A stretch of 59,725 nt of DNA, filler included, from 5 parts of 5 records of this genome joined end to end with filler, not necessarily neighbours in it; one strand, 5' to 3'. Shown: positions 1 to 15,403, counted from the first letter of the whole stretch. Program-made: numbers and translations. The notes: generated by a model not told the origin, from the sequence alone.

Positions 1-1404
1 TGTACATTAAGCATCATTTCAGACACCCATCGGTGAGCCAGTCTGTAGCGACCTCATAGAAAGCCGACGGTCTGAGTTTAAAAACCTTTGACCGTTTTCA
101 CCAATATTGCCAAACACTCGCCCCTTGCTATCCTACGGAGAGGGGCAACGACAATTCCATCTATGTGTTTTCTTATCTTTGTTGTGTTTGACTAGAATTA
201 GGTTTCCTTTTCCTAGGTCTTATTTTGTTTTACATCTGCCTAGCAAAAGTTCGTCCCCTTAAGAATGGGACCTCCGCAAAGAGATACTTCCCGCTAGGGC
301 TAAACCCTATCGGTACATAACACCTAACCCTGTGTTCCAATTGTCCGCCGATAAACCCACAAAGATGGGGCGTTCTTCAATTTGCCTACAAGTTTTTGGG
401 GCCTTCGGATTCCGTCGCAGAAGGATCGCCGAGAGCTTGTGGCCTCTGGCCCTCTTTGCCGGATCCGTTTTCGTTGATTAACTTACACAATACCCGCACG
501 CTAGCTTGTTTTTCTGGTGTCATTTTTGTATGAAAAATTTGATTTTGTAAATAAAATCACAGGGCGTAACTGTTCCGTTTCGTGGTTAACAAGGGATTTA
601 TCCGAAAGTACTCAATAACAATATCTATGTTGAGCGGACGTTTTTTTGAAGAGCTTCAGTCTCCAATGACGAAACTGTAACAGTTGTATCTTTTGTTATA
701 TTCGACTGCGCCAATCCCCGCAAACACTTGCTTCAAAAAAGTCAAATCATCCTGCTGCGACACGAGATATCTAATATTGAATTTTTTTTTGGTGGTTACG
801 TAAGAAATGCTAAAGCAGCCTTCAGCATCCGTAAACCCTGCTATTCATGCGTTTTCCAATGACGGTTCTGCCCGCCCCCAACGAGAAGGGCTCACAGTTA
901 ACAGGTCCGTTTTGTTTGAGTCTGCACCTGTAGGGCGACTGGAACAATAATGATCATTAAATGCATGGATAAATTTTTCTAACTTTCTTTTTGTTTTTGG
1001 TAATACGAACCAACCATTAACAAAGTTTATGATCTTTTTGAGTCCTTCTTCGTCTTGTACAACGAATCTAAAGGTTCTAACACCTTGTTTAACAACACGC
1101 CCAAGGTTAAGTTTCATTTTAATGTAGTAAAGAACGTGAATATTTTGATAACCCTGTGTTATAACAAACTGCAAATCCCCTCTTTTTGAGACTGTAAATG
1201 ATCCGTCGCCTTCAATAAATCCAATGAGTCATTCGTGAAATCACTTTTCAGAGGGAACTGCCTGTGGGTTTCCATACAAAATGCTTTGCGTTTCCGGGAG
1301 TGTTGCGCTTGGCGCAAATTCTATGAGTGCGCCTAGTGGGGGCTGCATACATTTGTGCGTGCAATTGAAGATTTTGTTTGTGGTTTTCATTGGGTTTTGC
1401 TTAT
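1..1404 (-). mobile_element. Group I intron in cox1 (third in window, after ...YQHLF-T), truncated by window start
   Basis: cox1 similarity stops after CAT CTG TTC T. Minus-strand core motifs CTACAGACTGG and TTAATGTACA (P7/S, cut by window edge) lie near positions 1-50. Contains a LAGLIDADG ORF. Confidence 0.85.
386..1404 (-). CDS. Intron-encoded double-motif LAGLIDADG homing endonuclease/maturase, in frame with upstream cox1 exon (code 4)
   Basis: Reading TGA as Trp joins the 1241..1507 and 845..1174 fragments into one frame ending at TAG 386-388. Motifs [12 protein letters not shown] and [12 protein letters not shown]. Confidence 0.9.
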
Positions 1405-1498
1405 AGAACAGATGTTGGTATAATACGGGATCTCCACCTCCTGCTGGGTCGTAGAAGGTTGTATTAAAGTTTCTGTCTGTTAATAACATGGTTATCGC
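1405..1498 (-). CDS. cox1: cytochrome c oxidase subunit 1, exon ([31 protein letters not shown])
   Basis: Universally conserved COX1 peptide. Confidence 0.97.
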
Positions 1499-1879
1499 TA
1501 TGATCAAGGTTTGCGCCCCGGAAACAAAAAGGAGGGCGTAAACACGTCTGCCACTGGAACTAATTTCTTAACAGATTGGACTATATCTTAATAATGCAGC
1601 CTTTTCGACACTTGCTGATGGAGTCTTTGGACTTTTCCATCGCACACGTTCTGGAGGGCTCGCTCTGAACGCTTGCTGTTAGGCCGGCTTGCGGTTATTT
1701 CTGGCGCATAGTCTCTGGGCATGCTCCGCGAAAAGGCGGTCGCTGGCGGAGCTTGCTGCTGATTGACCGCTCGATACATAGCCCATCACTTTTGGGCATG
1801 TCGTAAGAAGGCCGGCATTTTCAGCATATAGACAGATTTGAAGCCGGCGCGAAAGTTCAGAAACTTTGTGTGGGCGAAC
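1499..1879 (-). mobile_element. ORF-less group I intron in cox1 (381 nt), apparent terminal A
   Basis: P7 elements CAGAGACTA and AAGATATAGTCC. P1: exon GCCGGU pairs with IGS GCCGGC (U.G). P10: UUCGC pairs with exon GCGA. Confidence 0.85.
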
Positions 1880-3481
<1,602 letters not shown>

Positions 3482-3557
3482 ACCGTTCACCCAGTACCAA
3501 CACCCATTTCAATAAGAGATGATGATACTAATAAAAGTAGAGATGGAGGTAATAACC
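3482..3557 (-). CDS. cox1: cytochrome c oxidase subunit 1, first exon present in window ((W)LLPPSLLLLVSSSLIEMGVGTGWTV)
   Basis: Conserved COX1 peptide. GTGWT uses TGA. The N-terminal ~100 codons are not found in this contig. Confidence 0.95.
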
Positions 3558-3632
3558 GTTGCAGGTGAGAGCGCTACACACGCGGGAACTCCCTACACGA
3601 ACCTTGCGTATGTCTTTCGACACAAAAGGCTC
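3558..3632 (-). ncRNA. Group II intron 3' end: domain V (3599-3632) and domain VI (3558-3598)
   Basis: 34-nt GAGCCUUUU GUGUC GAAA GACAU AC GCAAGGUUC with AGC triad, GAAA loop and AC bulge. It is followed by a stem with a bulged A and terminal AC directly abutting the cox1 exon. Confidence 0.88.
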
Positions 3633-4179
3633 AACAAATCACATCTTTGTTTGATTGACGAATGCTTCTTCGGCGAAACAAGAAGCTTCTTAAAAAGGGG
3701 ATTCGCTTTTTGCCCGTGCAAAACGTTCATCAAAAAAGGACACAACATTTGTTGGTGTTCGTCGGCTCCAGTGCTTAGTTCTTCTGCGCAAGGCAGAACT
3801 ACGCAGAACGCCGATCCGCGACGCATAACAAAGCAGGGGCGCAGCAAACAAATTTTTTTCGGTTCAAGGTGTGTTCTACACAAGGTTCGACACTAAGTAC
3901 ACCCAGGACCAAAGAACCTGCAATTACATCTGCCACGTTACCTTTGGCACGGATCTTTTGTCTCTCATTACGGCTAATGGGGGTCTTTGACAAAAGAATC
4001 CGCGAAAACGCAAAAAGGCAGGCTTACGTAAGCAAATAACTACGTACCGCGTCGTGCCCCAAAGACCGCAAAGGTCGGTGAGTGTCCTGTTTCAAAGACA
4101 GCAAAACACAAACGTTCGCTGGAGACGCGGGGCAGACGACGGCAAAAACGAACCATGCGGGCAACGCGTGTGTCGAGGG

Positions 4180-4716
4180 TTACATCAAGTTTTTGCCTTT
4201 TGTTTTTAAAATTTCAGTTTCCCATCTGTTACCGTTACTCAACAAACGTTTTTTATTGTAGAGTAACTCCTCGTGTGTCTCGGTAGAAAACTCATAATTT
4301 GCGCCCTCAACAATGGCGTCAACGGGACACGCTTCTTGACAAAACCCGCAGTAAATACATTTTGTCATGTCAATATCATAACGTGTAGTTCTTCGGCTAC
4401 CATCTGCACGAGGTTCGGCTTCAATGGTTATTGCCTGAGCGGGACAAATTGCTTCACACAATTTACATGCAATACAACGTTCTTCCCCTGTATTATATCT
4501 ACGCAAAAGATGTTCGCCTCTAAAGCGGGGACTAAGGGGACCTTTTTCAAAGGGATAGTTTAATGTAACCTTTCTTCTAAAGAAATATTCTAATGTTATT
4601 CATAAACCTCGTAAAAGTTCGGTGAGTAGCAAGGCTCTAATGAGAGCATCTGCGGTTCCGGAAAGTGAGGTTTTGCTTGGAGTCCTAACGGGAAGGTTGT
4701 GGTTAAACTTGGTCAT
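4180..4716 (-). CDS. nad8: NADH dehydrogenase subunit 8 (NuoI/TYKY, 2x[4Fe-4S])
   Basis: [31 protein letters not shown] and [12 protein letters not shown]. One in-frame TGA read as Trp. ATG at 4716. Confidence 0.95.
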
Positions 4717-4968
4717 AGTTTGTTGGTTCTTCGTCCTGCGGACTTGAGTGTATGGAATTGGGGCAAGAAGGCTCCTCTCCGAAGGCAAAACAAAACAAAA
4801 TGCTTTTTTGCTCGCATTCCCCGAGCGGCGTGCGTGCCGCCAGCGGGCACCTTCAAACCGAATGCGCCCATTTTAGAACAGCAGGTTCATTGTGTAGAAC
4901 TTGTGTAAGCCCGGGCGCATTCTGGAGGGCGGGCGGTCGTGATGATGACCCTTTGTGCCATGCAGGGT

Positions 4969-5937
4969 CTACGGCGAGACCCGCACACTCTGCCCGTCCT
5001 GTTCGGACAAAAGGGCAGCTTGCGCGCCACTTCCCGGAGCACATTGGTAAAAAGTATAAGATAAAATTATAGAATTTACATCCTCCATTTTTGGATCTTT
5101 CTCAAAATCAGAATCAATATAAAAAAGAATAGGCATTTCAACGGATTCATTCGGTTTTAATCTTTGTTCCTCAAAGCAAAAGCATTGTATTTTATTAAAA
5201 TAAATACCTGCTTTTTGTGGAATAATATTGTAAACAGAAATGCCCGAAATCGGCATATTTGTTTTATTGTGTATAGTATAAAAACTTAAAGCACTATCTC
5301 CGGGATACACATGAATTTTATCAATATTCGGTCTAAAAAACAAATCCGTACCGGCCTCGGAGCTTGTGCTTGTTTTGTTTAATAAAGCTAGCGTGCCCGC
5401 CTCTGTCGACGTGTCCCGAATAGGCACGTGAGGCTCTCCAGAAACCAAAGGGTCGCGAGCATTTAAACTGACAGAGTCTGCATTAAAGTGAATTGTAATT
5501 GGGGGCGGTGACTTTGTTTGCACTTCGACTCGATTTGCGCGAACCTCAGCGTCGCCAGAATCCTTTCCAACAGCCTCTGAAGCGGGATAAGGGGGCGGAG
5601 ACGAAGTTGGTGGAACAAGCTTTCATGGCGGCGTTCAAACGGTGCCGCCAGAACCATACGCTTGACAATACAATTGATATAAAGGAACTAAAGCATAGGA
5701 TAAACCTAGAATCAAGATTACAATACTTATCAAATTGAGGGCGGTTGGCGTTGCCATCACAGAAGTCGCAGAAGTAGGCCGGCCGGAGTAAGGGGTGGGT
5801 GTTGCGGCCGAAGGCGAAGAACGCTCCGCTTCTGCTACGTTTTGCGAGGTGTAACGTGTAACTCGGGCCGGAGGCGAAGCCGAAGGCGCGTCGGAGACGA
5901 AGAACCTTCGGCTCTTGACATGGATTCACGAAAACAT
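4969..5937 (-). CDS. cox11: cytochrome c oxidase assembly protein Cox11/CtaG, with in-frame insertions (start 5937 or 5757)
   Basis: TM anchor plus SYALVPLYQLYCQAYGSGGT, in frame (via two TGA) with YFNKIQCFCFEEQ and ILSYTF. Confidence 0.9.
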
Positions 5938-6722
5938 TTTCTGCGCTCCCTTTTTGTGTGTCGAGCCTTGCGCGTTAAACAGGTTCAACAAAGAGGCGGC
6001 AAAAAAAACTTGAGCCGAAAAAGCTCGACCAACGCGTAAAAGGATGCATGCCCGCTGAGGTCTAAGAACCTTACAGAAATGGCCGATCTTAGTTCAACAC
6101 AGGGGAACAAAGCAGGGTTTTCGGCCTTTTCGGGCATACAGACAAAATGGCGCAAATTGACGTCGCGACAGCGGACAGTGGGAAAGTCCCGGGTTCTCAG
6201 GATGACGTGATTTGAACACGTGATCTTCTGTACCCAAAACAGACGCATTACCAGACTATGCTACATCCTGTGAAAAACGCCCGCCACAAAGTGGCGTGGC
6301 GAGGGAGCGCGGGGGTTGGGGACACAGCCCGCCAAAACCAAGAGCGAAGGCATGCCACGCTTGTTCTTCGAGGTTGCCGGTCTCCGAAAGGGTTCCCGCG
6401 TTGGATTGCGTCTGACAAAGTTCGTTTTGAAAAAAGGATGCATGCTTTCGCAGCGAACGCACAAGATTCTCCCGCAGCAGCGCATGACAGCCGGCTTTCA
6501 GCGCGCAAGCACCGAGTTGAGGGTCAAAAATCTGGGCAAAAATGGGACAAAGGGGACAAGCGTTTTTGCACTCGAGACCTAAGATATCGGTTGGCACAAG
6601 TGCGCAAGGCGCATGTTGAGCAAAGGTCAGGACAGCCCAAGGTTAAGCCAAAACAGAGTGTGCCAAGAGCGGGTCTCAAATCTAAAAAAGCCCAGCAAAA
6701 ACCAGCCAGCCTTACAAAAATG

Positions 6723-6796
6723 TAGCGATAGTCGGATTTGAACCAACGACCCGCGAATTATGATTCCGCTATTCTAACCAACTAAACTATATCGCC
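6723..6796 (-). tRNA. trnM: tRNA with CAU anticodon (probably elongator Met)
   Basis: Cloverleaf GGCGATA...GCGGA ATCATAA TTCGC...GGTTCAAATCC...TATCGCTA. Confidence 0.88.
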
Positions 6797-7022
6797 GCGT
6801 TTGTATCGAGATGGCGAAACCGCAAAAAGGGCCACGGTTTAAGCTCAAGGAAAAGCCTTATGATCCGCCACGGAGCACCACGCCTTCTCCGAGCCAGGCG
6901 GGCAGTCGAAGAGGAATGCCCCCGAAGTATAGGGGGCGGAACATAGGGGGCGATGCGCAAAACACAACGCCCCAGCTGGTTCAACACAGGGCCAGCCTTA
7001 CAAAAACGCCCGCACAAAAAAA

Positions 7023-7138
7023 GATTAGATTACCATCCTTGCCCTCTCTTTGAGGATATTAATGGCGCAAGAATATTTCACGTATCGAGTTCGGTATGAG
7101 ATCGGGTGGTTCTATTCTTGCTATTCAAGAATCTAATC
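7023..7138 (-). rRNA. rrn5: mitochondrial 5S rRNA
   Basis: 116 nt with terminal helix GATTAGATT/AATCTAATC and internal GAACCACCCGATCTCATACCGAACTCG...GTGAAA matching the bacterial-type 5S loop C. Confidence 0.85.
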
Positions 7139-7709
7139 ATTCGTTTGCCCACAGCGATGTTTCGGTCGCTAACGCGGGCCCGCGCAGCATTTCTGCTCGC
7201 GTGCTTGTACACATGCCCACAGGTCCACAGGTTGATTTTGGTCCAAAGGTGAAGGAAAAGAGTTGGGCGACACGTGCTTTTATGCCGCCTGCAATTTGTG
7301 TCCTTTTGGCGAAACTTACGGGCTTTTGTTCGTGCTCGCCCATTTGGTTGGTGCAGAACAAAGTGCCCGCCAAGAAAGGGCGGGCGCGCAATTAATGCCT
7401 TCGGAGACGACTTGTTCTCCTTTTACAACGAACCCTTTCAAGACAAGCAAAACAAACGAAGCAAGGGAGCCAAGACCCGTGGGTCTGGGTGTGTGTGTGT
7501 GTCCCAAGACCAAAGACCAAATTGCAGGCACCACACACAAGCACAAACACAAGCAAAGTCGCGAGGCAAAACTGCCACATCAAAGGGGAAGAAGTTGATA
7601 AGCACTGGGTGAAGCCAAACAAAGGGCGAAGCAAAGCAAAGCCGAAGCACAAGCCCAAAGAATTTGTGTGTAAGCGCCTGCGCTTCCACAGCAGGGCCGG
7701 AGGGAAACC

Positions 7710-8495
7710 TTATCGCCGCGAGGTTCACGAACTCGGAGAAGAAGACAAGAAAATCGCCTCTTTAATTTTTGCAATCGCTAAGCCTGGATTAAGGTTTTTT
7801 GGACAGGTTTTTGAACAATTCATAATTGTATGGCATCGATATAGTTTAAAGGGATCCTGTAAGCCAGCAAGGCGAGATTCTGTAGTTAAATCTCTGCTGT
7901 CAATGATTCAACGGTATGCTTGTAACAAAATAGCGGGTCCCAAGTATTTTTCATTGTTTCATCAATAACTTGGACAGCTCGTGGAACAACAAGCACAAAG
8001 AATACATTCATACAAACCATCTAATTTTTGTCGATCTCCCTTAGATTGGTAATATTCTTTTTGTTTCGCTGTCGGAGAATCATCACGAGCACCTTGTGTC
8101 GTGGGTGTGGTTTCTGAGCGAGAGAGTCATGGTTGTATCGATTTGTATTGTGCATAAAAATTAGTCAAGTCGGGCACCAAATCTTTTACAACAAATAAAT
8201 GGGGTAACGGGTAAACTTTAGTGGACCGCCTCGAATGGTCAATCGGTTTTAAACATGCTAAAGTGTTGGTTCCATTTATATTCATTGCACAACTACCACA
8301 AATACCTTCACGACAAGATCTGCGAAAGGTTAAAGAACTGTCCAGATTGTTTTTAACCAGGATGAGAGCATCCAAAACCATTGGACCGCACTCGTTTTTG
8401 GAAATCGGATAAATACTTAAATAAGGCTTATCGTTTTTTTCCGGATTTCAACGATAAATTTTGAAATAGGTTAGGTTTGCCGATTTTTCTGTCAT
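7710..8495 (-). CDS. sdh2: succinate dehydrogenase Fe-S subunit
   Basis: [37 protein letters not shown] (both W are TGA) and [13 protein letters not shown]. Ends at TAA 7710-7712. Confidence 0.96.
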
Positions 8496-8855
8496 GGGGT
8501 GAATTGAAGGGTGTCTCTTGCGAAAGTATCCAAGTTGCTTACTTACGTGCGCCCGTTGGTGAAGGTATTGCTTCCTGCGGAACAGACACACACAGACAAA
8601 AAGCCCGCCAAAAGACGACACAAGGCGGGCACAAAAACGCCCGCGAGAGGCGAAAATTGCGCGCAAGCACGCAATCAGCAATTGGCAAGTTGTGCCAGCG
8701 GTTCTTGCTGTGGCGAAAGGATAGCGCGCGTTCAGGCTAACGTAGGTTTTGCCTGCTTTTAAAGAAAATTCGAAGAGTGCAGGCAATGTAGCAACCTCTC
8801 TTATTGCGACGTGGTTGCGGAAGCGCCTCCCCTTAATGAATGACTGCCTTCCGCG

Positions 8856-8937
8856 TATCGCCTGCCGGACTTGAACCGGCAGCACCGTATGGTACAGATT
8901 TTGAGTCTGCTGTGTTTACCAATTTCACCAAGGCGAC
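8856..8937 (-). tRNA. trnL: tRNA-Leu(CAA)
   Basis: GTCGCCT...GCAGA CTCAAAA TCTGT, long variable arm, GGTTCAAGTCC...AGGCGATA. Confidence 0.9.
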
Positions 8938-9377
8938 CTTGAATATCCCTGAGGCGCCGTGTAACGCGATGTGCTGCCGTCGAGGATCCCCGCCTTAACA
9001 TGTCAGCAGGGGATTCAAAAAGACGGACGAAAAGCTTGCGAAAGAGCCGCAATTCAGCTTGTTCGTAGGCTCCCAGCGGATGTAGGTTGCTGCTTTTTTG
9101 ATGCCCCTCTCAGTGAGGTTGAACTGTTTGGCCGCTGCGCGGCTTGCTCACGTGTCGTTTTGTGGAACACAAAACAAGCCAGCCAGCCATCCGTATGAGG
9201 GTGGCCGACGGTCAAGAGGCAAGCTCCTGAACGTGTTCTCCGGACCTTTGGACTTTGTGTGTCGAGCCCGCTTAGATCGAAGGGCAGCTGTCTTGGGTTC
9301 TCACCTACCTTCGGAGCTTTCGGAGGGTTTTGGGTTTTCGCGCCTTCGAGGCCGCCCTTCGACATGAAACAAAAGTT

Positions 9378-9884
9378 TTAAACAGAACCAAAAAAAATAA
9401 AGATATACATATACTTGAGTAATTGCATTTGGATGCCGGTCACAAAGAAAAAACAAAGCATCTTTATTTTTTCGTAATAAACATAATCTTCAATAATAGT
9501 TTTTATACCTTCTGCGGCATGTATTCAAGTTATCAAAGACAAAGCGAAGAAGCATAACTTGGCCAAGGTGGCGCTCGAGGAGGCAAAAAGTGCTTGTACC
9601 AACAACACCAAAGAAACGCCATTCAACGCATCAAAAACAACTGCGGGCGACGTTATTGGCCCGGTTGTTGCAGCCGCAGGCGAAGACGAACTGACGCTAG
9701 CAAAAAAACCCGCAGGCACGTTCTTGAAAAAAAAAGGCGAAGACGGGGAGCAGAGAAAATATAAAGACAAAACAAGGCACAAAATGATAAGTGGTATTAA
9801 GGCTATAGCAGTTGCCCGTTGCACTATTCAATGCTTAAGAGCAAAAAACTCGAGTTTCCGTTGTGGGGCGGTGGTTTGTGACAT
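9378..9884 (-). CDS. sdh4: succinate dehydrogenase membrane anchor subunit 4, with loop insertion
   Basis: HWIVQRATAIALIPL and WIHAAEGIKTIIEDYV motifs joined in one frame using TGA=Trp. Confidence 0.88.
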
Positions 9885-11205
9885 GGTTCTTTGTTGACTT
9901 GGTTTGCAAACAGCCACTTTTGCAAAGTTTGTCGTTTTTTTCGTTTGCTCTTACGCTTATGAGAGAGCACAAAACAAACATGAGAAGACAAGCAAACATC
10001 ATGCTGCGCTCTTGCAGCATTGCCTCTTTCAAGAGGCAACAACCGAGGGACATGGCCCTTATACGAAGGGATGCCCTTTTTCGCGGGGGACACCGTTGTT
10101 GGTCCTTGGAATTTTTAACATGTCCTTTTTTCGCTCGCGGGATAGATAACGCGCAGAGAGTACGGCATTGCCTGTCTTGAAATGCAGAACCAAAGCAACG
10201 CAAAGTTCCGTCGCAGAAAAGCAAAGCAAAGCAAAACAGCCAGCAAGGCTCGACACACAAAATGGCTGTTTGACCGAGTTTTGCCAAAAGGTCGAGCAGT
10301 TGGTTGTCCCCACAAAAAGGGCCACCGAAACAACACAACAAACTGCCCAAAAAAAAAAACCCGCAGGCTCACAATCAAAAAAAATGACAAAAAAGCGCAA
10401 TTGTTTCCAGCCCCAGGTTCCCCTAGGACTACCTTGTTACGACTTAATCCCAGTTATTAGCGGTACTATGAGAAATACTTACAAAGAGACCTTAGGCGTT
10501 ATAAGCAAGGCGCTCCACGTGTCGAAGACCACCCCCCAAGATATCAAAATAAGCTATTTCTTTCGAGTTCGACTGATTTCCGGGACTTGACGGGCGGTGT
10601 GTACAAGATTAGTTTACATATTCACCGTAGCATGCTGATCTACGATTACTAGCGATTCCAGCTTCATGCTTTCGAGTTGCAGAAAACAATCCGAACTTGG
10701 ACAATTTTTAAAGATTTGCTCCAACTTGCGTTATTGCATCAAATTGTAATTGCCATTGTAATACGTGTGTAGCCCAGTTCATAAGGGTCATGAGGACTTA
10801 ACGTGATCCTTACTTTAATCCAGCTTTCACCGGCTATTTTCGAGAGTGTATCCATATAGTTGCAGAGCAACAAAGTCTGTATACAAGCTCTTTGGCAGGC
10901 TTATTGTTCAACACAGATACCAAAAGCCTACAAAAGGGCGCGCAAAAGATTTGTGCCTGTTGGATAAACAACATGAATAAGGGTTGCGTTCGTTAAAAGG
11001 ACTTAACCAAACATTTCACGACACGAACTTCAGATAGCCATGCAACACCTGTTACAAATGATTCAAGTTGCAATTCACGATTGCGTACGATGCTCTCCAA
11101 AATTTAACATGGAAAAGTGTCTTGAATCAACTGTCAAGAACTGGTAAGGTTCTGCGCGTTTTATCGAATTAAACCACATATTCCACCGCTTGTTCTAATC
11201 CCCGC

Positions 11206-11237
<32 letters not shown>

Positions 11238-11334
11238 GTTCCCAGGCGGAGTGTTTAAGGCGTTAGCTTTCAACACTGAACTCTTTGGAGCCCAATATTT
11301 AACACTCATCGTTCACAGTGTGGACTACTTGGGT

Positions 11335-12594
11335 CACCCACCGGCATATTTGTTCCTTCGCAGGAACGCAGCCAACAGCCGTTTCCGGCTTAAATTTTGG
11401 GTTGGACTATATCATTCTCTGTTTTGGTTTGTGACCGAAAGTTCTTTAAAGTAGCTTTTCTCTCGGCAACTACGTTTTCGATTTCTTGTTTAGAAAATTG
11501 AGATAACGATGAAGCCATTTCAGAGATTCAGCGTTGTTGGAGTTCAGGATCGTTGAATAACAAGGTTGTTTTATAAACCATAGATAGTACAGGGATATGT
11601 GGTAAGATTAATCTAAGAAATTTTTCAAGATCTTGTCTAGAATCTATCCACAAACGGTACTGGGTGACGGACGACGATTTTGGGTCCTTTTCAGGCGCAG
11701 CCGAAGGCGCGTTGCTTATTCGATGCGGCCGGACTTTTGTAGATATACCTCAAACTTTTTTCATGTAGCGATCTAAAACTTCAAGGTCTTTCAGAGAAAA
11801 CGAATCTGTACAAAATACGCCTTGCTGTGTATTCTTGACAAGAGAACCGTCATCGCACCATCATATCGCAAGAGATTGCGCAGTAAGCATGTTAAGCCAT
11901 TTTCTTCGAATTTTCAAGAGCCCATTCTTGTGCGTATATGCGTGGAGCATGGTCAGTTCTGGACATGCCCGGCTTTGATATCGAAATTTTGGATGTTTGC
12001 CAAATTCGCCCTTGGAAGGTGTTTGCTCTCATCAATCTTTGCAGTCCAAGCCGGACTTTGCCGAATATTTTGCCTTGAGTTGATCTCTTTTTCAAAAAAA
12101 ATATTCTTTTTGTTTAGATGCGTGACGAAAAGAGAATCGTGCGTTCTTATAATTCTTATTTATTCTAAGAGAACCATCACCTAATAAACTTCCCAAAATA
12201 ATATGTTCTGGACTTGAAAGCGCGAGTCCACTTGGAGTCTCGGCGCTTAACGATGATATACAACGATACAACAAAAATGTATTTTGTTTTAAAGGTTTCA
12301 TGATGCAATTCTGAGGCATTTTGGCCTTGATTAAACAAAAACACAAACTATTTCCTTGTGTGTCTCCATAGTCTCTACGGGGACGTCACACTCAATGTAG
12401 CATCAAAACATGACCGAAACATGAATGGCGTCTTCCCTCGGGATTGGCTTGAAGCACAAACGGTCGTAGACTCCGCAGTTTGCGCACGGTCGGGACGACC
12501 GCACGCGTGCATCAAACGTTCCCCGATACAGCTGAATGCATTTTGGTCCCTTGAGGGACCAATGGACACCTTTTGGCGTTAAACGCCTTGGACT
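11335..12594 (-). mobile_element. Group I intron in rns at the position equivalent to E. coli S788
   Basis: Interrupts GGATTAGAT|ACCC and ends in G. Core motifs GTAGAGACTA and ATGATATAGTCC. Confidence 0.9.
11390..12319 (-). CDS. Intron-encoded LAGLIDADG_2-type double-motif endonuclease (code 4)
   Basis: IILGSLLGDGSL and SLAIWWCDDGS in one frame ending at TAA 11390-11392. Confidence 0.88.
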
Positions 12595-14249
12595 ATCTAA
12601 TCCAATTTGCTCCCCACACTTTCGCACATTAGCGTCAGTTTACAACTAGATAATTGCCTCGGCTCTTGGTCTTCCCTCTAGTATCTATGAATTTAACCTC
12701 TCCACCAGAAATTCCATTATCCTTTTTGAAACTCAAAGTTTATCGGTTTTTAAACAATGTCCAAAGTTGAGCCTTGGGATTTTCATTTAAACCTAATGAA
12801 CAGCCTACGTGCGCTTTACGCCCAATAATTAGGAATAACGCTCGCCCCTTCCGTATTACCGCTGCTGCTGGCACGGAAATGAGCCAGGACTTCTTTTCCG
12901 AGTAAAGTCATAATCTTCCTCGACGAAAGAGTTTTACAACGATTAAACTTGTGTCTTCATCACTCATGCAAGATTGCTGGATCAAGCTTTCGCTCATTGT
13001 CCAAGATTCCTCACTGCTGCACCTTAGTAGGCGCTGGACCTTTTCTCAGTTCCAGTGTGGCCGTTCGCGCTTTCACGTCGGCGAGAGATCATTGATTTGG
13101 TGGGCTTTTTTCTCACCAACTATCTAATCTCGAATAGGAAAATTTCATAGTTTTTTGATTCGAAACCCAACAAAAAAGGGTTCGACACAACAAAATTTGC
13201 CTTTGTTCCTTAAAAACAAAGATCGGACTTTTTAAATGTCGGTCGCAGACACCTTTATTTTCCCGACTATGAAGCATCTACCTATCCAATACTCACCCGG
13301 ACGCCATGTTCTTTAAGATAAAAAAACATTCGACTTGCATGTGTAAAGCATCTTGCTAGCGTTCATTCGGAGCCAGGATCAAACTCTTGCGTTCATTTTG
13401 GCTGGGAAGCTTCCTCCACGACGTAGAGCGTTTGTCTTTGAAGGCAGCGTTCCGCATGTGGCCTTTCGGCCACGATGACAGCCAAATAACAAAATCCTCC
13501 TTTTTATGAATTTATAATCTGTGCTCCGTGTTCGAACTTGGAACTCGTCGCGCGAGCCTTTTCGGAGAACTGGCCGTCGGAACAAGATGAACCCGAAGGC
13601 ATGTGTGGAACGCGAAATAAGCACGGAGTGTGGCGTTTGCTTTGTTGCGGGCAAAACACCAAACTCGCCTCAGTGTGAATTCCAGATGCCGCGCCCGGCC
13701 GAAGGCCGGGGAGGCGGAATCCCAAAACGAGGGATTCCCGCGTGCAATACCGAACGGGATTGCCTTTGGGGAATAAGAGGCGTCCAAAAACAAAATGCTA
13801 TTGTTTTCGGGACATAAGGTGGTCATGCCGCCATTGTGCGGCGGAGGTGACGGACGATTATGCTTATTGTTAGTTGGTCTCGGCTCAATGCTCCTTAAAC
13901 GATTCGAAGGTCCCGGAACGCCCGCCAGTCAAAAACAGACATTTTGGAGTTTTGGCTGCGTTATCGCCGCAGCCGCCTTAGTTCTAATAAGAGCTAAACC
14001 TTTACGGGCAACACTCATTTAGGCTATCGCGTGTTAATCTGACACAACTCTCATTGAAGGATCCGTTTTGGATATAACTTCCTACTTATATGCTTTCAGT
14101 AGTTATTTATAAATACGTAGCTACTCGACATTGCAATTGGCATCACAACCGATACACCATTGGTATTTTTACCGCGGTCCTCTCGTACTAACGATAATAT
14201 TCCTCAATCCTTCTTTACCCACGGTAGATAGGGACCAAACTGTCTCACG

Positions 14250-15045
14250 TATGTAACCCCCTATTTTCATAAGGGCATGGACTATATCTTCAGCCCCTGC
14301 GCGTAAACGCGCAGGGGCGTTAACGTATGATACCTAAGAGGATTTTTCAGGTATCTCAAGCGAAATGCTTTCAGTCTCTACAGGCGGAAAAAGTATAGAT
14401 TGTACGACCAGAGAAGTATTCTTTCGTTTTTTTGAATCTGTAAATTGAGCAACTTTGTCTACTAATTTGCATACCTCTATAAAGTCCTCTTTTGTATCCA
14501 CAGTCTTAACTTGGTCAATGATTTTTAATATTAATTTAGCCAAAGGCCGTTTTATCCGCAAATATGGGTACAGCGCGAGAAGCAACGGCTCAACGAACAC
14601 AGGTCCGGTAACAGTGTATTCGGACATATTATCGTTTCGAATTCTAATAACACCACATTTCAAGAGTTTATGTAATCATAAGATAAATCAATGTCTACTT
14701 TTCTTTTGATAAAAGGTTATAGATACTCGGATTTGAAATTTTAATTTATAGTTTTTTCGGGGAATTATTTGTGATAAAAGACAACCGTCTCCATCGATAA
14801 AACCCGCAAGATAGCTCAAGTCCTGCTCGGACAAGTGTCGAAGCGAGGGCGGAGTCTTTGGTGACGGTTCATTGTTGAATTTTTGCTTTGGCTGTGTCAT
14901 ATTTTGTTCTTAAATTTTCTATACTTAAACCTTCCCTCGGTATTGCCATCCAACCATTTTTGCGTGCGATTGGAGAAGGTTTCACCGATATAAGTTAATG
15001 CTGCTAAGTGCGCCTTGCAGCGCACCAACGCCGTCAGCAAATTTG
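14250..15045 (-). mobile_element. Group I intron in rnl at L2593, apparent terminal A
   Basis: Inserted in AGAACGT|CGTGAG. P1 AACGU/GCGUU. Core motifs TAGAGACTG and AAGATATAGTCC. Confidence 0.87.
14334..14900 (-). CDS. Single-motif LAGLIDADG homing endonuclease (I-CreI-like)
   Basis: YLAGFIDGDGCL. The two ORF-track fragments join via TGA=Trp (RHWFILWL). L2593 is the I-CreI intron site. Confidence 0.9.
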
Positions 15046-15052
15046 ACGTTCT

Positions 15053-15331
15053 CACGTCTTGTTTGGCCTCGCCTTGAGGCGAGGGTTGGACTATATCATC
15101 ATCCTTAAGCAAGCAGGCTGGCGATCGGTGCAAGCTCAATTTAAGGAGTCTCACGGTTGAGTCTCTGAAGATCCTTTGGCAAAAGACAGCAATTTTGCAA
15201 AGTTTCCTGCGGATTTGCCCTCACCCCATGTGTTCAATAATAGGAGGGGTTACGATTGTGAGGGGGGAGCGTTTCCCGCAAATAGTGAGATTTTTTTTGA
15301 TTGCCTTACGGCAAAAAGGGTTCAGAACTCT
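15053..15331 (-). mobile_element. ORF-less group I intron in rnl at L2586 (279 nt)
   Basis: P1 GGGUUU/GAACCC and P10 GUUCU/AGAAC. Core motifs CAGAGACTC and GATGATATAGTCC. Ends in G. Confidence 0.87.
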
Positions 15332-15403
15332 AAACCCAACTCATGTACCACTTTAATGCAGGCGAACAGCCTGACCCTTGGGACCTTCTTCAGCCCCAGG
15401 ATG

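Follow-up and report, generated by a model that had tools for sequence, protein, structure and literature searches.

Trans-splicing of the mitochondrial cox1 mRNA of the centrohelid Marophrys probably runs through a split group II intron

Trans-splicing of cox1 in the mitochondrion of the centrohelid Marophrys sp. SRT127 is already published: an RT-PCR product was obtained across the two gene pieces, cox1_a and cox1_b, and none from genomic DNA (PMC6425028, Nishimura et al. 2019). We find that this reaction very probably proceeds through a split group II intron, the 3' half of which lies directly ahead of the first cox1_b exon in the DNA analyzed here. According to the available text of the 2019 report, a search beside both cox1 loci yielded no group I or group II motif, RNAweasel detected none of group II, the models given to Infernal were those of group I, and the question of mechanism stayed open (PMC6425028). 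Beyond that report, a sub-threshold domain V/VI, a branch-point adenosine, the exact RNA junction and a GUGYG motif in relatives point to an intron of group II. No later assignment of a mechanism was found in the accessible portions of the literature on Marophrys trans-splicing and on centrohelid mitochondrial introns, reviews included.

Results

A mitochondrial contig of Marophrys in a metagenome bin

The window, that is, the whole stretch of DNA analyzed (59,725 bases), consists of five contigs with spacers between them, each spacer being N44, 12 AT-only bases and a second N44. The initial annotation had missed this composition. The mitochondrial part is restricted to contig 1 (1–15403, GC 0.449). 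Contigs 2–5 (15404–59725, about 44 kb, with GC of 0.33, 0.63, 0.57 and 0.55) look bacterial, from long ORFs judged by eye in the ORF list, and the mitochondrial contig apparently entered a bin of unrelated bacteria. On sequence comparison, contig 1 belongs to the mitochondrial genome of Marophrys sp. SRT127, or to that of a very close strain, and represents part of it. The top named match of a cox1 exon is Cox1 of this centrohelid, with 99% identity over a 78-residue query that includes one non-exon residue at each end, and the gene, its exons (100% protein identity), the group I intron lengths and the split itself are those of SRT127 (PMC6425028). The available text on the published record (AP019310) gives a GC content of 44.7%, against 44.9% in contig 1, together with the same gene content, including cox11, nad8, sdh genes and rrn5, and the same use of UGA for Trp; the cox1 introns of 1373 and 381 nt, defined here by RNA, have the published lengths of cox1_i1 and cox1_i2 (PMC6425028).

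Every recognized gene of contig 1 is on the minus strand, in the order: 3' end of rnl with group I introns, rns (10394–13394, with a LAGLIDADG_2 intron ORF), a membrane subunit of sdh, trnL, sdh2, rrn5, trnM, trnP, cox11, nad8, a 622-nt spacer, and the cox1 exons, extending to base 1. Both rRNAs had been placed upstream of cox1; of the two, only rns is complete, and rnl is represented by its 3' part and introns. The 5S rRNA gene (7022–7138, minus strand) scores 38.2 bits, right at the Rfam gathering score of 38. The mitochondrion-encoded cox11 (4972–6255, minus strand) has a Pfam CtaG_Cox11 match limited to residues 297–404 of a 428-residue frame, and it may carry a long N-terminal extension or have a later start. 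A 23-nt inverted repeat, 96% complementary (5949–5971 and 10243–10265), contains the motif AAGGCTCGACACAC, which also occurs in a variant DNA contig of sequencing run X1 that leaves the window sequence at 3847, which hints at a small dispersed element and at spacer differences between strains.

Exons and group I introns of cox1_b

The coding sequence of cox1 begins in the middle of a codon at 3557 on the minus strand, with GG TTA TTA CCT, in the context ...CACCTGCAAC|GGTTATTACCTCC. That it does so directly behind a group II domain V/VI was the first claim of the initial annotation, and sequence, tblastn, Rfam and folding all bear it out. Three exons are delimited on the minus strand by tblastn with Marophrys Cox1 (P0003) and by RNA contigs, each with 100% identity over its exon part. 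Exon 1 (3479..3557) runs from the GG of Trp107 to Tyr133, with residues 108–133 matched at 3555–3478, an RNA joint at 2105|3479 and a loose RNA end at 3557; exon 2 (1879..2105), with RNA joints, is matched by residues 133–208 at 2107–1880, and exon 3 (1405..1497), also present in RNA contigs, by residues 209–239 at about 1498–1403.

The exons are separated by group I introns on the same strand. The first, cox1_i1 (2106..3478), corresponds to an RNA joint that skips 1373 nt in the metatranscriptome runs X3 and X4; it scores 25.4 bits against RF00028 and carries a LAGLIDADG_1 ORF (Pfam PF00961) in frame with the exon. The second, cox1_i2 (1498..1878), corresponds to a joint that skips 381 nt and scores 48.1 bits against RF00028 (E 3.6e-10). 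Downstream of exon 3, cox1_i3 holds a double LAGLIDADG ORF and is cut by the contig end at base 1. The three further group I splicing events initially proposed are thus those visible on the contig, but the published list for Marophrys cox1 has seven group I introns (PMC6425028). Two catalogue Cox1 proteins, P0001 (595 aa) and P0002 (663 aa), have the region of the split site duplicated internally (..LLPPS..GTGWTVYPPLS.. twice), which is probably an artefact of assembly or gene calling.

No match better than E 0.27 was found by tblastn for Cox1 residues 1–107 anywhere in the window. The N-terminus had been noted as missing from the 11.8 kb upstream, and tblastn agrees with this; the absence is partly a contig-end effect, because these 11.8 kb stop at the end of the contig at 15403.

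RNA contigs define the trans junction

Contigs of three metatranscriptome runs and of one DNA run (X1) were placed on positions 1300–5000, and the joined form expected across the junction is present in two of the metatranscriptome runs, the contigs of which have ...AAATAATATTAGCTTTT joined to the GG at 3557. One of them, record 14 of X3 (582 nt, depth 60), covers 1405–1497, 1879–2105 and 3479–3557, with 0, 2 and 1 other letters, respectively (3 in 399), and continues for 20 nt more. The X4 contig has a 17-nt loose end past 3557, the reverse complement of which, AAATAATATTAGCTTTT, encodes Asn-Asn-Ile-Ser-Phe followed by a T, exactly the Cox1 sequence that precedes Trp107. In the mature RNA, ...UUUU is therefore followed directly by GGUUA, with the joint at 3557. 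Formally, the cut could be one base later, because the cox1_a intron, as seen in relatives, also begins with G; the U|GG cut agrees with the consensus boundaries of group II introns, which start with GUGYG and end in AY. Since the RNA contigs were assembled from environmental samples, they indicate the presence of the joined form, not its amount. They give no cover over 3656–4151, which, for contigs, makes no statement on transcription of the spacer.

These data also bear on whether the locus is an artefact or a dead copy, with nad8 and cox1 misassembled or an intact cox1 elsewhere, a suspicion that the origin of the window from a bin with unrelated bacterial contigs could raise. It is scarcely credible: DNA contigs of X1, which may be the source sample of the window, cover 3588–3814 and 3940–4352 without differences, the same break site is present in two relatives described below (L044 and L166), and the same split has been published for a cultured strain with PCR controls (PMC6425028). 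That cox1 mRNA is built in trans through a split group II intron, as had been proposed from the DNA, is supported by the published RT-PCR (PMC6425028), by the RNA contigs and by GUGYG in the relatives.

Domains V and VI adjoin the 3' splice site

Domain V is a 34-nt element (3599..3632, minus strand) delimited by alignment to RF00029 and by folding. It shows the AGC triad, a GAAA tetraloop and an AC bulge, with a single U.C mismatch in the lower helix. The covariance model scores 34.6 bits against 3634–3531 (E 4.2e-4, in a 6-kb search) and 32.4 bits against 3634–3559 (E 1.7e-4, in a 661-nt search), both on the minus strand; neither reaches the gathering score of 40, which counts against the group II assignment, and domain V is for this reason absent from a default Rfam scan.

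Domain VI follows at 3560..3597 (minus strand) in the minimum-free-energy and centroid folds and in the Rfam alignment, with a lower helix UGUAGG/CCUGCA and an upper helix GAG/CUC. Together, the two domains fold at -30.2 kcal/mol (z -3.36), and none of 200 shuffles was as good. The bulged A of domain VI, placed at 3566 (minus strand) by the fold and the Rfam alignment, is the predicted branch point and stands 8 nt before the last intron base, C3558, where 7–8 nt are expected for group II introns. The last intron bases, AAC (3558..3560, minus strand), fit the rule that the intron ends in AY, and the RNA contigs put the 3' splice site between 3558 and 3557, at most 1 nt from the end of domains V/VI.

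The spacer upstream of domain V

The intron's 3' half extends at most over 3558..4179 (minus strand), between the RNA-supported exon start and the stop codon of nad8, and the assignment of domains covers only the last ~90 nt of this interval. The nad8 gene (4180..4716, minus strand), a homologue of NuoI, has its stop at 4180–4182 and a candidate ATG start at 4716–4714; it matches the NCBIfam equivalog NF004539 with 284.9 bits against a cut-off of 225, as well as Pfam Fer4 families. The distance between the nad8 stop and domain V, initially estimated at about 550 nt, is 547 nt.

No match to the Rfam group-II-D1D4 models was obtained at E<=10 in window positions 3540–4200, a result that weighs against the assignment. 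These models are built on bacterial classes. The Rfam search of 6000–15403 found no further group II pieces. Two spacer ORFs, 3596–3892 and 3927–4205, have no Pfam or NCBIfam family and therefore give no sign of a maturase remnant, and no unusual repeats were seen in the spacer. The motif GTGGCAGATG at about 3937–3928 had been taken to mark the junction of domains II and III. We rejected it as such a marker, since nothing supports it: neither a covariance model nor conservation extends over the region. The associated suggestion of a break upstream of domain IV likewise gains no support from covariance models or from conservation around 3930.

The cox1_a locus in two relatives

The evidence for the 5' splice site comes from cox1_a loci of relatives, not from that of the window organism itself. 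Metagenome contigs were scanned for a 17-mer lacking the continuing exon, which yielded 120 stretches, four of them with cox1 by tblastn. Two of the four are uninterrupted at the split site, with about 75% identity, and a third (L081, 49% identity) also continues past it (residues 67–161). The remaining one, L044, is a marine contig of 1876 nt in which residues 3–109 match at 88.8% and the match then stops; its cox1_a exon ends in ...AGCTTTT at 317 and is followed by GTGTG (318–322). A tRNA gene lies 313 nt past the exon, followed by sdh2, and the 313-nt flank consists partly of tandem repeats. By eye, tandem TTCCTTTGGGTTT-like units at 360–430 of L044 have inverted AAATCCCAAAGGAAG-like counterparts at 925–985, across the tRNA gene, and these TTCCTTTGGGTTT/AAATCCCAAAGGAAG repeats could pair into a long stem around the tRNA.

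When genome contigs were scanned with 19 bases of L044, nine stretches were obtained, one with cox1 (L151, in full L166). L166 has 14,680 nt and was assigned to a bacterial MAG; on its minus strand lie nad11, part of nad2, nad9, cob, two tRNAs and cox1_a. The latter is 96% identical to Marophrys over residues 1–106, and the exon ends at the same T (8380), followed by GTGCG (8379–8375), with the next tRNA 712 nt downstream. An exon ending in SF plus one T and followed by GUGYG had been predicted, and both cox1_a DNA loci found in relatives have it; at a fixed position the motif is expected by chance about once in 512 per sequence, by simple arithmetic. Of two short ORFs that run past NNISF, P0122 (..NNISFCAI) is compatible with GUGC, whereas P0123 (..NNISFCST) cannot encode GUGYG, a point against the assignment. 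After cox1_a, positions 1–4915 of L166 (minus strand) hold plasmid-type genes, a DNA polymerase of type B (PF03175, 291 bits) and an ORF for a D5-like primase/helicase; genes of this sort are reported to be integrated in Marophrys mtDNA.

The two loci also inform on whether cox1_a might lie upstream of cox1_b on the same strand, so that one long transcript over many genes would be spliced in cis as a giant intron. All genes of contig 1 are on one strand, as such a transcript would have it, and the position and strand of cox1_a relative to cox1_b lie outside the window. However, the transcript would have to cross at least 11.8 kb that hold rns, rrn5, three tRNAs and four protein genes and no cox1_a, and these RNAs must be cut from any such molecule. 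In L166, the 8.3 kb past cox1_a hold tRNAs and plasmid-type genes and contain no cox1_b, and elsewhere in the MAG that holds it we found no cox1_b, only two bacterial oxidases. Separate loci are moreover described for Marophrys (PMC6425028), and we regard a giant cis intron as very unlikely; the preferred reading is a group II intron split between two loci.

Features of the 5' flanks

Over 317 nt of exon, L044 and L166 have 78.5% identity, with the last 19 nt as the longest identical run. Judged from these two sequences, the conserved exon end fits a constraint from pairing of intron-binding sites (IBS) with exon-binding sites (EBS). In L166, intron nucleotides 283–290, AAAAGCUG, can pair with the last 8 nt of the exon and stand in the apical loop of a hairpin of -22.6 kcal/mol (z -2.47; 7 of 200 shuffles were as good), so that the predicted AAAAGCUG loop would be EBS1-like and in the usual setting of EBS1. 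L044 has AAAAGC at nucleotides 218–223, without a clear hairpin, and neither flank offered a convincing candidate for EBS2.

Several results on these flanks count against a group II assignment. The Rfam D1–D4 models gave no match in L044 280–640 (E<=10) or in L166 (E<=1), the 712-nt 5' flank of L166 showed no clear gain in stability over shuffles (z -1.56), and the flank of L044 is limited to 313 nt, in part tandem repeats, ahead of a tRNA gene. In full-duplex predictions of the 5' halves of L044 and L166 with the 3' half in the window, the energy was matched by 11 of 30 shuffles; the best ungapped cross-species helix, of 11 bp as compared with 10–14 bp in 30 shuffles, is a further point against. 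No convincing partner was found in the relatives' 5' halves for the conserved 22 nt before domain V. All these pairing searches were cross-species, the two intron halves never coming from one organism, and no significant similarity was detected between the 5' flanks of L044 and L166 or between L166 and the window contig; cross-species pairing at chance level is no surprise, given that L044 and L166 have flanks without detectable similarity even to each other. Further pattern scans were negative: for the 3' half, viral contigs gave 30 stretches, none with cox1, and genome contigs gave no stretch; for the 5' junction, viral contigs gave three stretches, none with cox1.

Domains V/VI in read-through ORFs of relatives

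The conservation of the 3' half could be followed in public catalogue proteins, by back-translation of protein sequence, not from DNA. P0005, P0009, P0014 and P0121 derive from ORFs that run from the intron into the exon (...SYLQR-LLPPS...), crossing domains V/VI because the LAGLIDADG frame of cox1_i1 is open from the upstream exon and the intron end. The corresponding ORF in the window (2140–3573, minus strand) is likewise open from the exon and already across the terminal bases of the group II intron (..RSHLQR-LLPPS..).

In all four ORFs, codons compatible with CUGCAAC|GG are kept, and so is the branch A, which occupies the second position of a Tyr codon. P0009 and P0121 reach far enough upstream to include domain V, located 76 nt ahead of the exon as compared with 75 nt in the window, and the nine bases AAGAUGUGA directly before domain V are compatible too (K-M-W). 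Within domain V, pair 14-19 is a forced U-A in P0121 and C-G in the window, a two-sided change; pair 10-23 is G-C in P0009 and P0121 and G-U in the window, and pair 11-22 is U-G in P0009 and U-A in the window. No mismatch is forced in the upper helix of P0009 or P0121, and the loop stays NAAR. Conservation of domains V/VI in the relatives is implied by these back-translated codons.

These observations bear on a further explanation, in which domains V/VI would be the relic of a decayed intron and the exons would be joined by other machinery, as for dinoflagellate cox3 or diplonemid genes. Such a relic would account for the lack of domain I–IV model matches in both halves, for the Rfam score below threshold and the U.C mismatch in domain V, and for the finding of no motif in the 2019 report (PMC6425028). 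It would leave unexplained why the RNA junction coincides exactly with the boundaries of a group II intron (GUGYG in relatives, AAC here, and a branch A 8 nt upstream), why the structure of domains V/VI is apparently kept in relatives, including a two-sided pair change, and why the exon end is so unusually conserved between L044 and L166. We consider a relic improbable, and a functional split group II intron remains our preferred interpretation.

Discussion

Proposed course of trans-splicing

In the mechanism that we propose, cox1_a, located at another locus, contributes the N-terminal 106 codons plus one T, and contig 1 the cox1_b piece. The cox1_a precursor would end in the 5' part of the intron, with GUGYG and a domain I that bears the exon-binding sites, and the cox1_b precursor would present up to 547 unassigned nt, then domain V and, next to the exon, domain VI. 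Association of the two precursor RNAs, the way in which the halves assemble and any protein helpers being conjectural, would rebuild the ribozyme; A3566, the presumed branching nucleotide, would attack the 5' splice site after ...AGCUUUU, and the released exon would in turn attack the 3' splice site, after C3558, to yield UUU-UGG-UUA (Phe-Trp-Leu). The group I introns of cox1_b would subsequently be removed in cis.

The place of the break can be narrowed down conditionally. If the EBS1-like loop of L166 is genuine, at least that part of domain I resides in the 5' half, a placement that fits the common break in domain IV. The 313-nt flank of L044 is too short for domains I–III, so that, if it is the whole 5' half, part of them would have to be supplied by the 3' half or by a third RNA, as in psaA of Chlamydomonas. 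As a broader proposal, a break at an unusual place or an intron in three pieces, combined with an old split shared with haptophytes such as Isochrysis and thus Haptista-wide, appears doubtful, if somewhat less so than the alternatives weighed above.

Comparison with other split introns

Split group II introns occur in plant mitochondrial nad1, nad2 and nad5 and in psaA of Chlamydomonas, where the exons are transcribed separately, each next to an intron half, and the halves come together again, usually through domain IV; intron 1 of psaA is tripartite. These differ from Marophrys cox1 in that they concern other genes and other lineages. Haptophytes are usually placed near centrohelids. In the haptophyte Isochrysis galbana, as in Marophrys, cox1 is trans-spliced; it lies in two distant exons, and a 44-nt group II segment adjoins exon b; the available text leaves the mechanism open (PMC9551565, Fang et al. 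2022). The cox1 of Diphylleia rotans is presented as the first case of group II trans-splicing outside green plants and resembles the present one in being a protist mitochondrial cox1 in pieces, with a domain V beside the downstream exon, proof by RT-PCR and cis-spliced group I introns; it differs in belonging to another lineage and in having two split introns with predicted intermolecular stems in domain IV (PMC4779616, Kamikawa et al. 2016). A group II intron is also inserted at about the same cox1 nucleotide in some plants (cox1i323g2; 323 in plant and 322 in Marophrys numbering), but it is cis-spliced and has maturase remnants, and the correspondence, which is by nominal numbering, is to be taken as a lead only (PMC10012718).

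Significance

What is new here is the class of the intron, its splice sites, the candidate branch point A3566 and the occurrence of the same break site in several uncultured relatives. A split group II intron would give a mechanism to a trans-splicing event that has been published since 2019 without one. The case also shows how a diverged domain V can escape detection at the default thresholds of covariance models. The break site recurs in relatives from marine, sea-ice and other metagenomes, and the split is therefore conserved and not the quirk of one strain. If the assignment is true, group II trans-splicing in mitochondria outside green plants would extend to centrohelids as a further lineage, after Diphylleia and probably Isochrysis.
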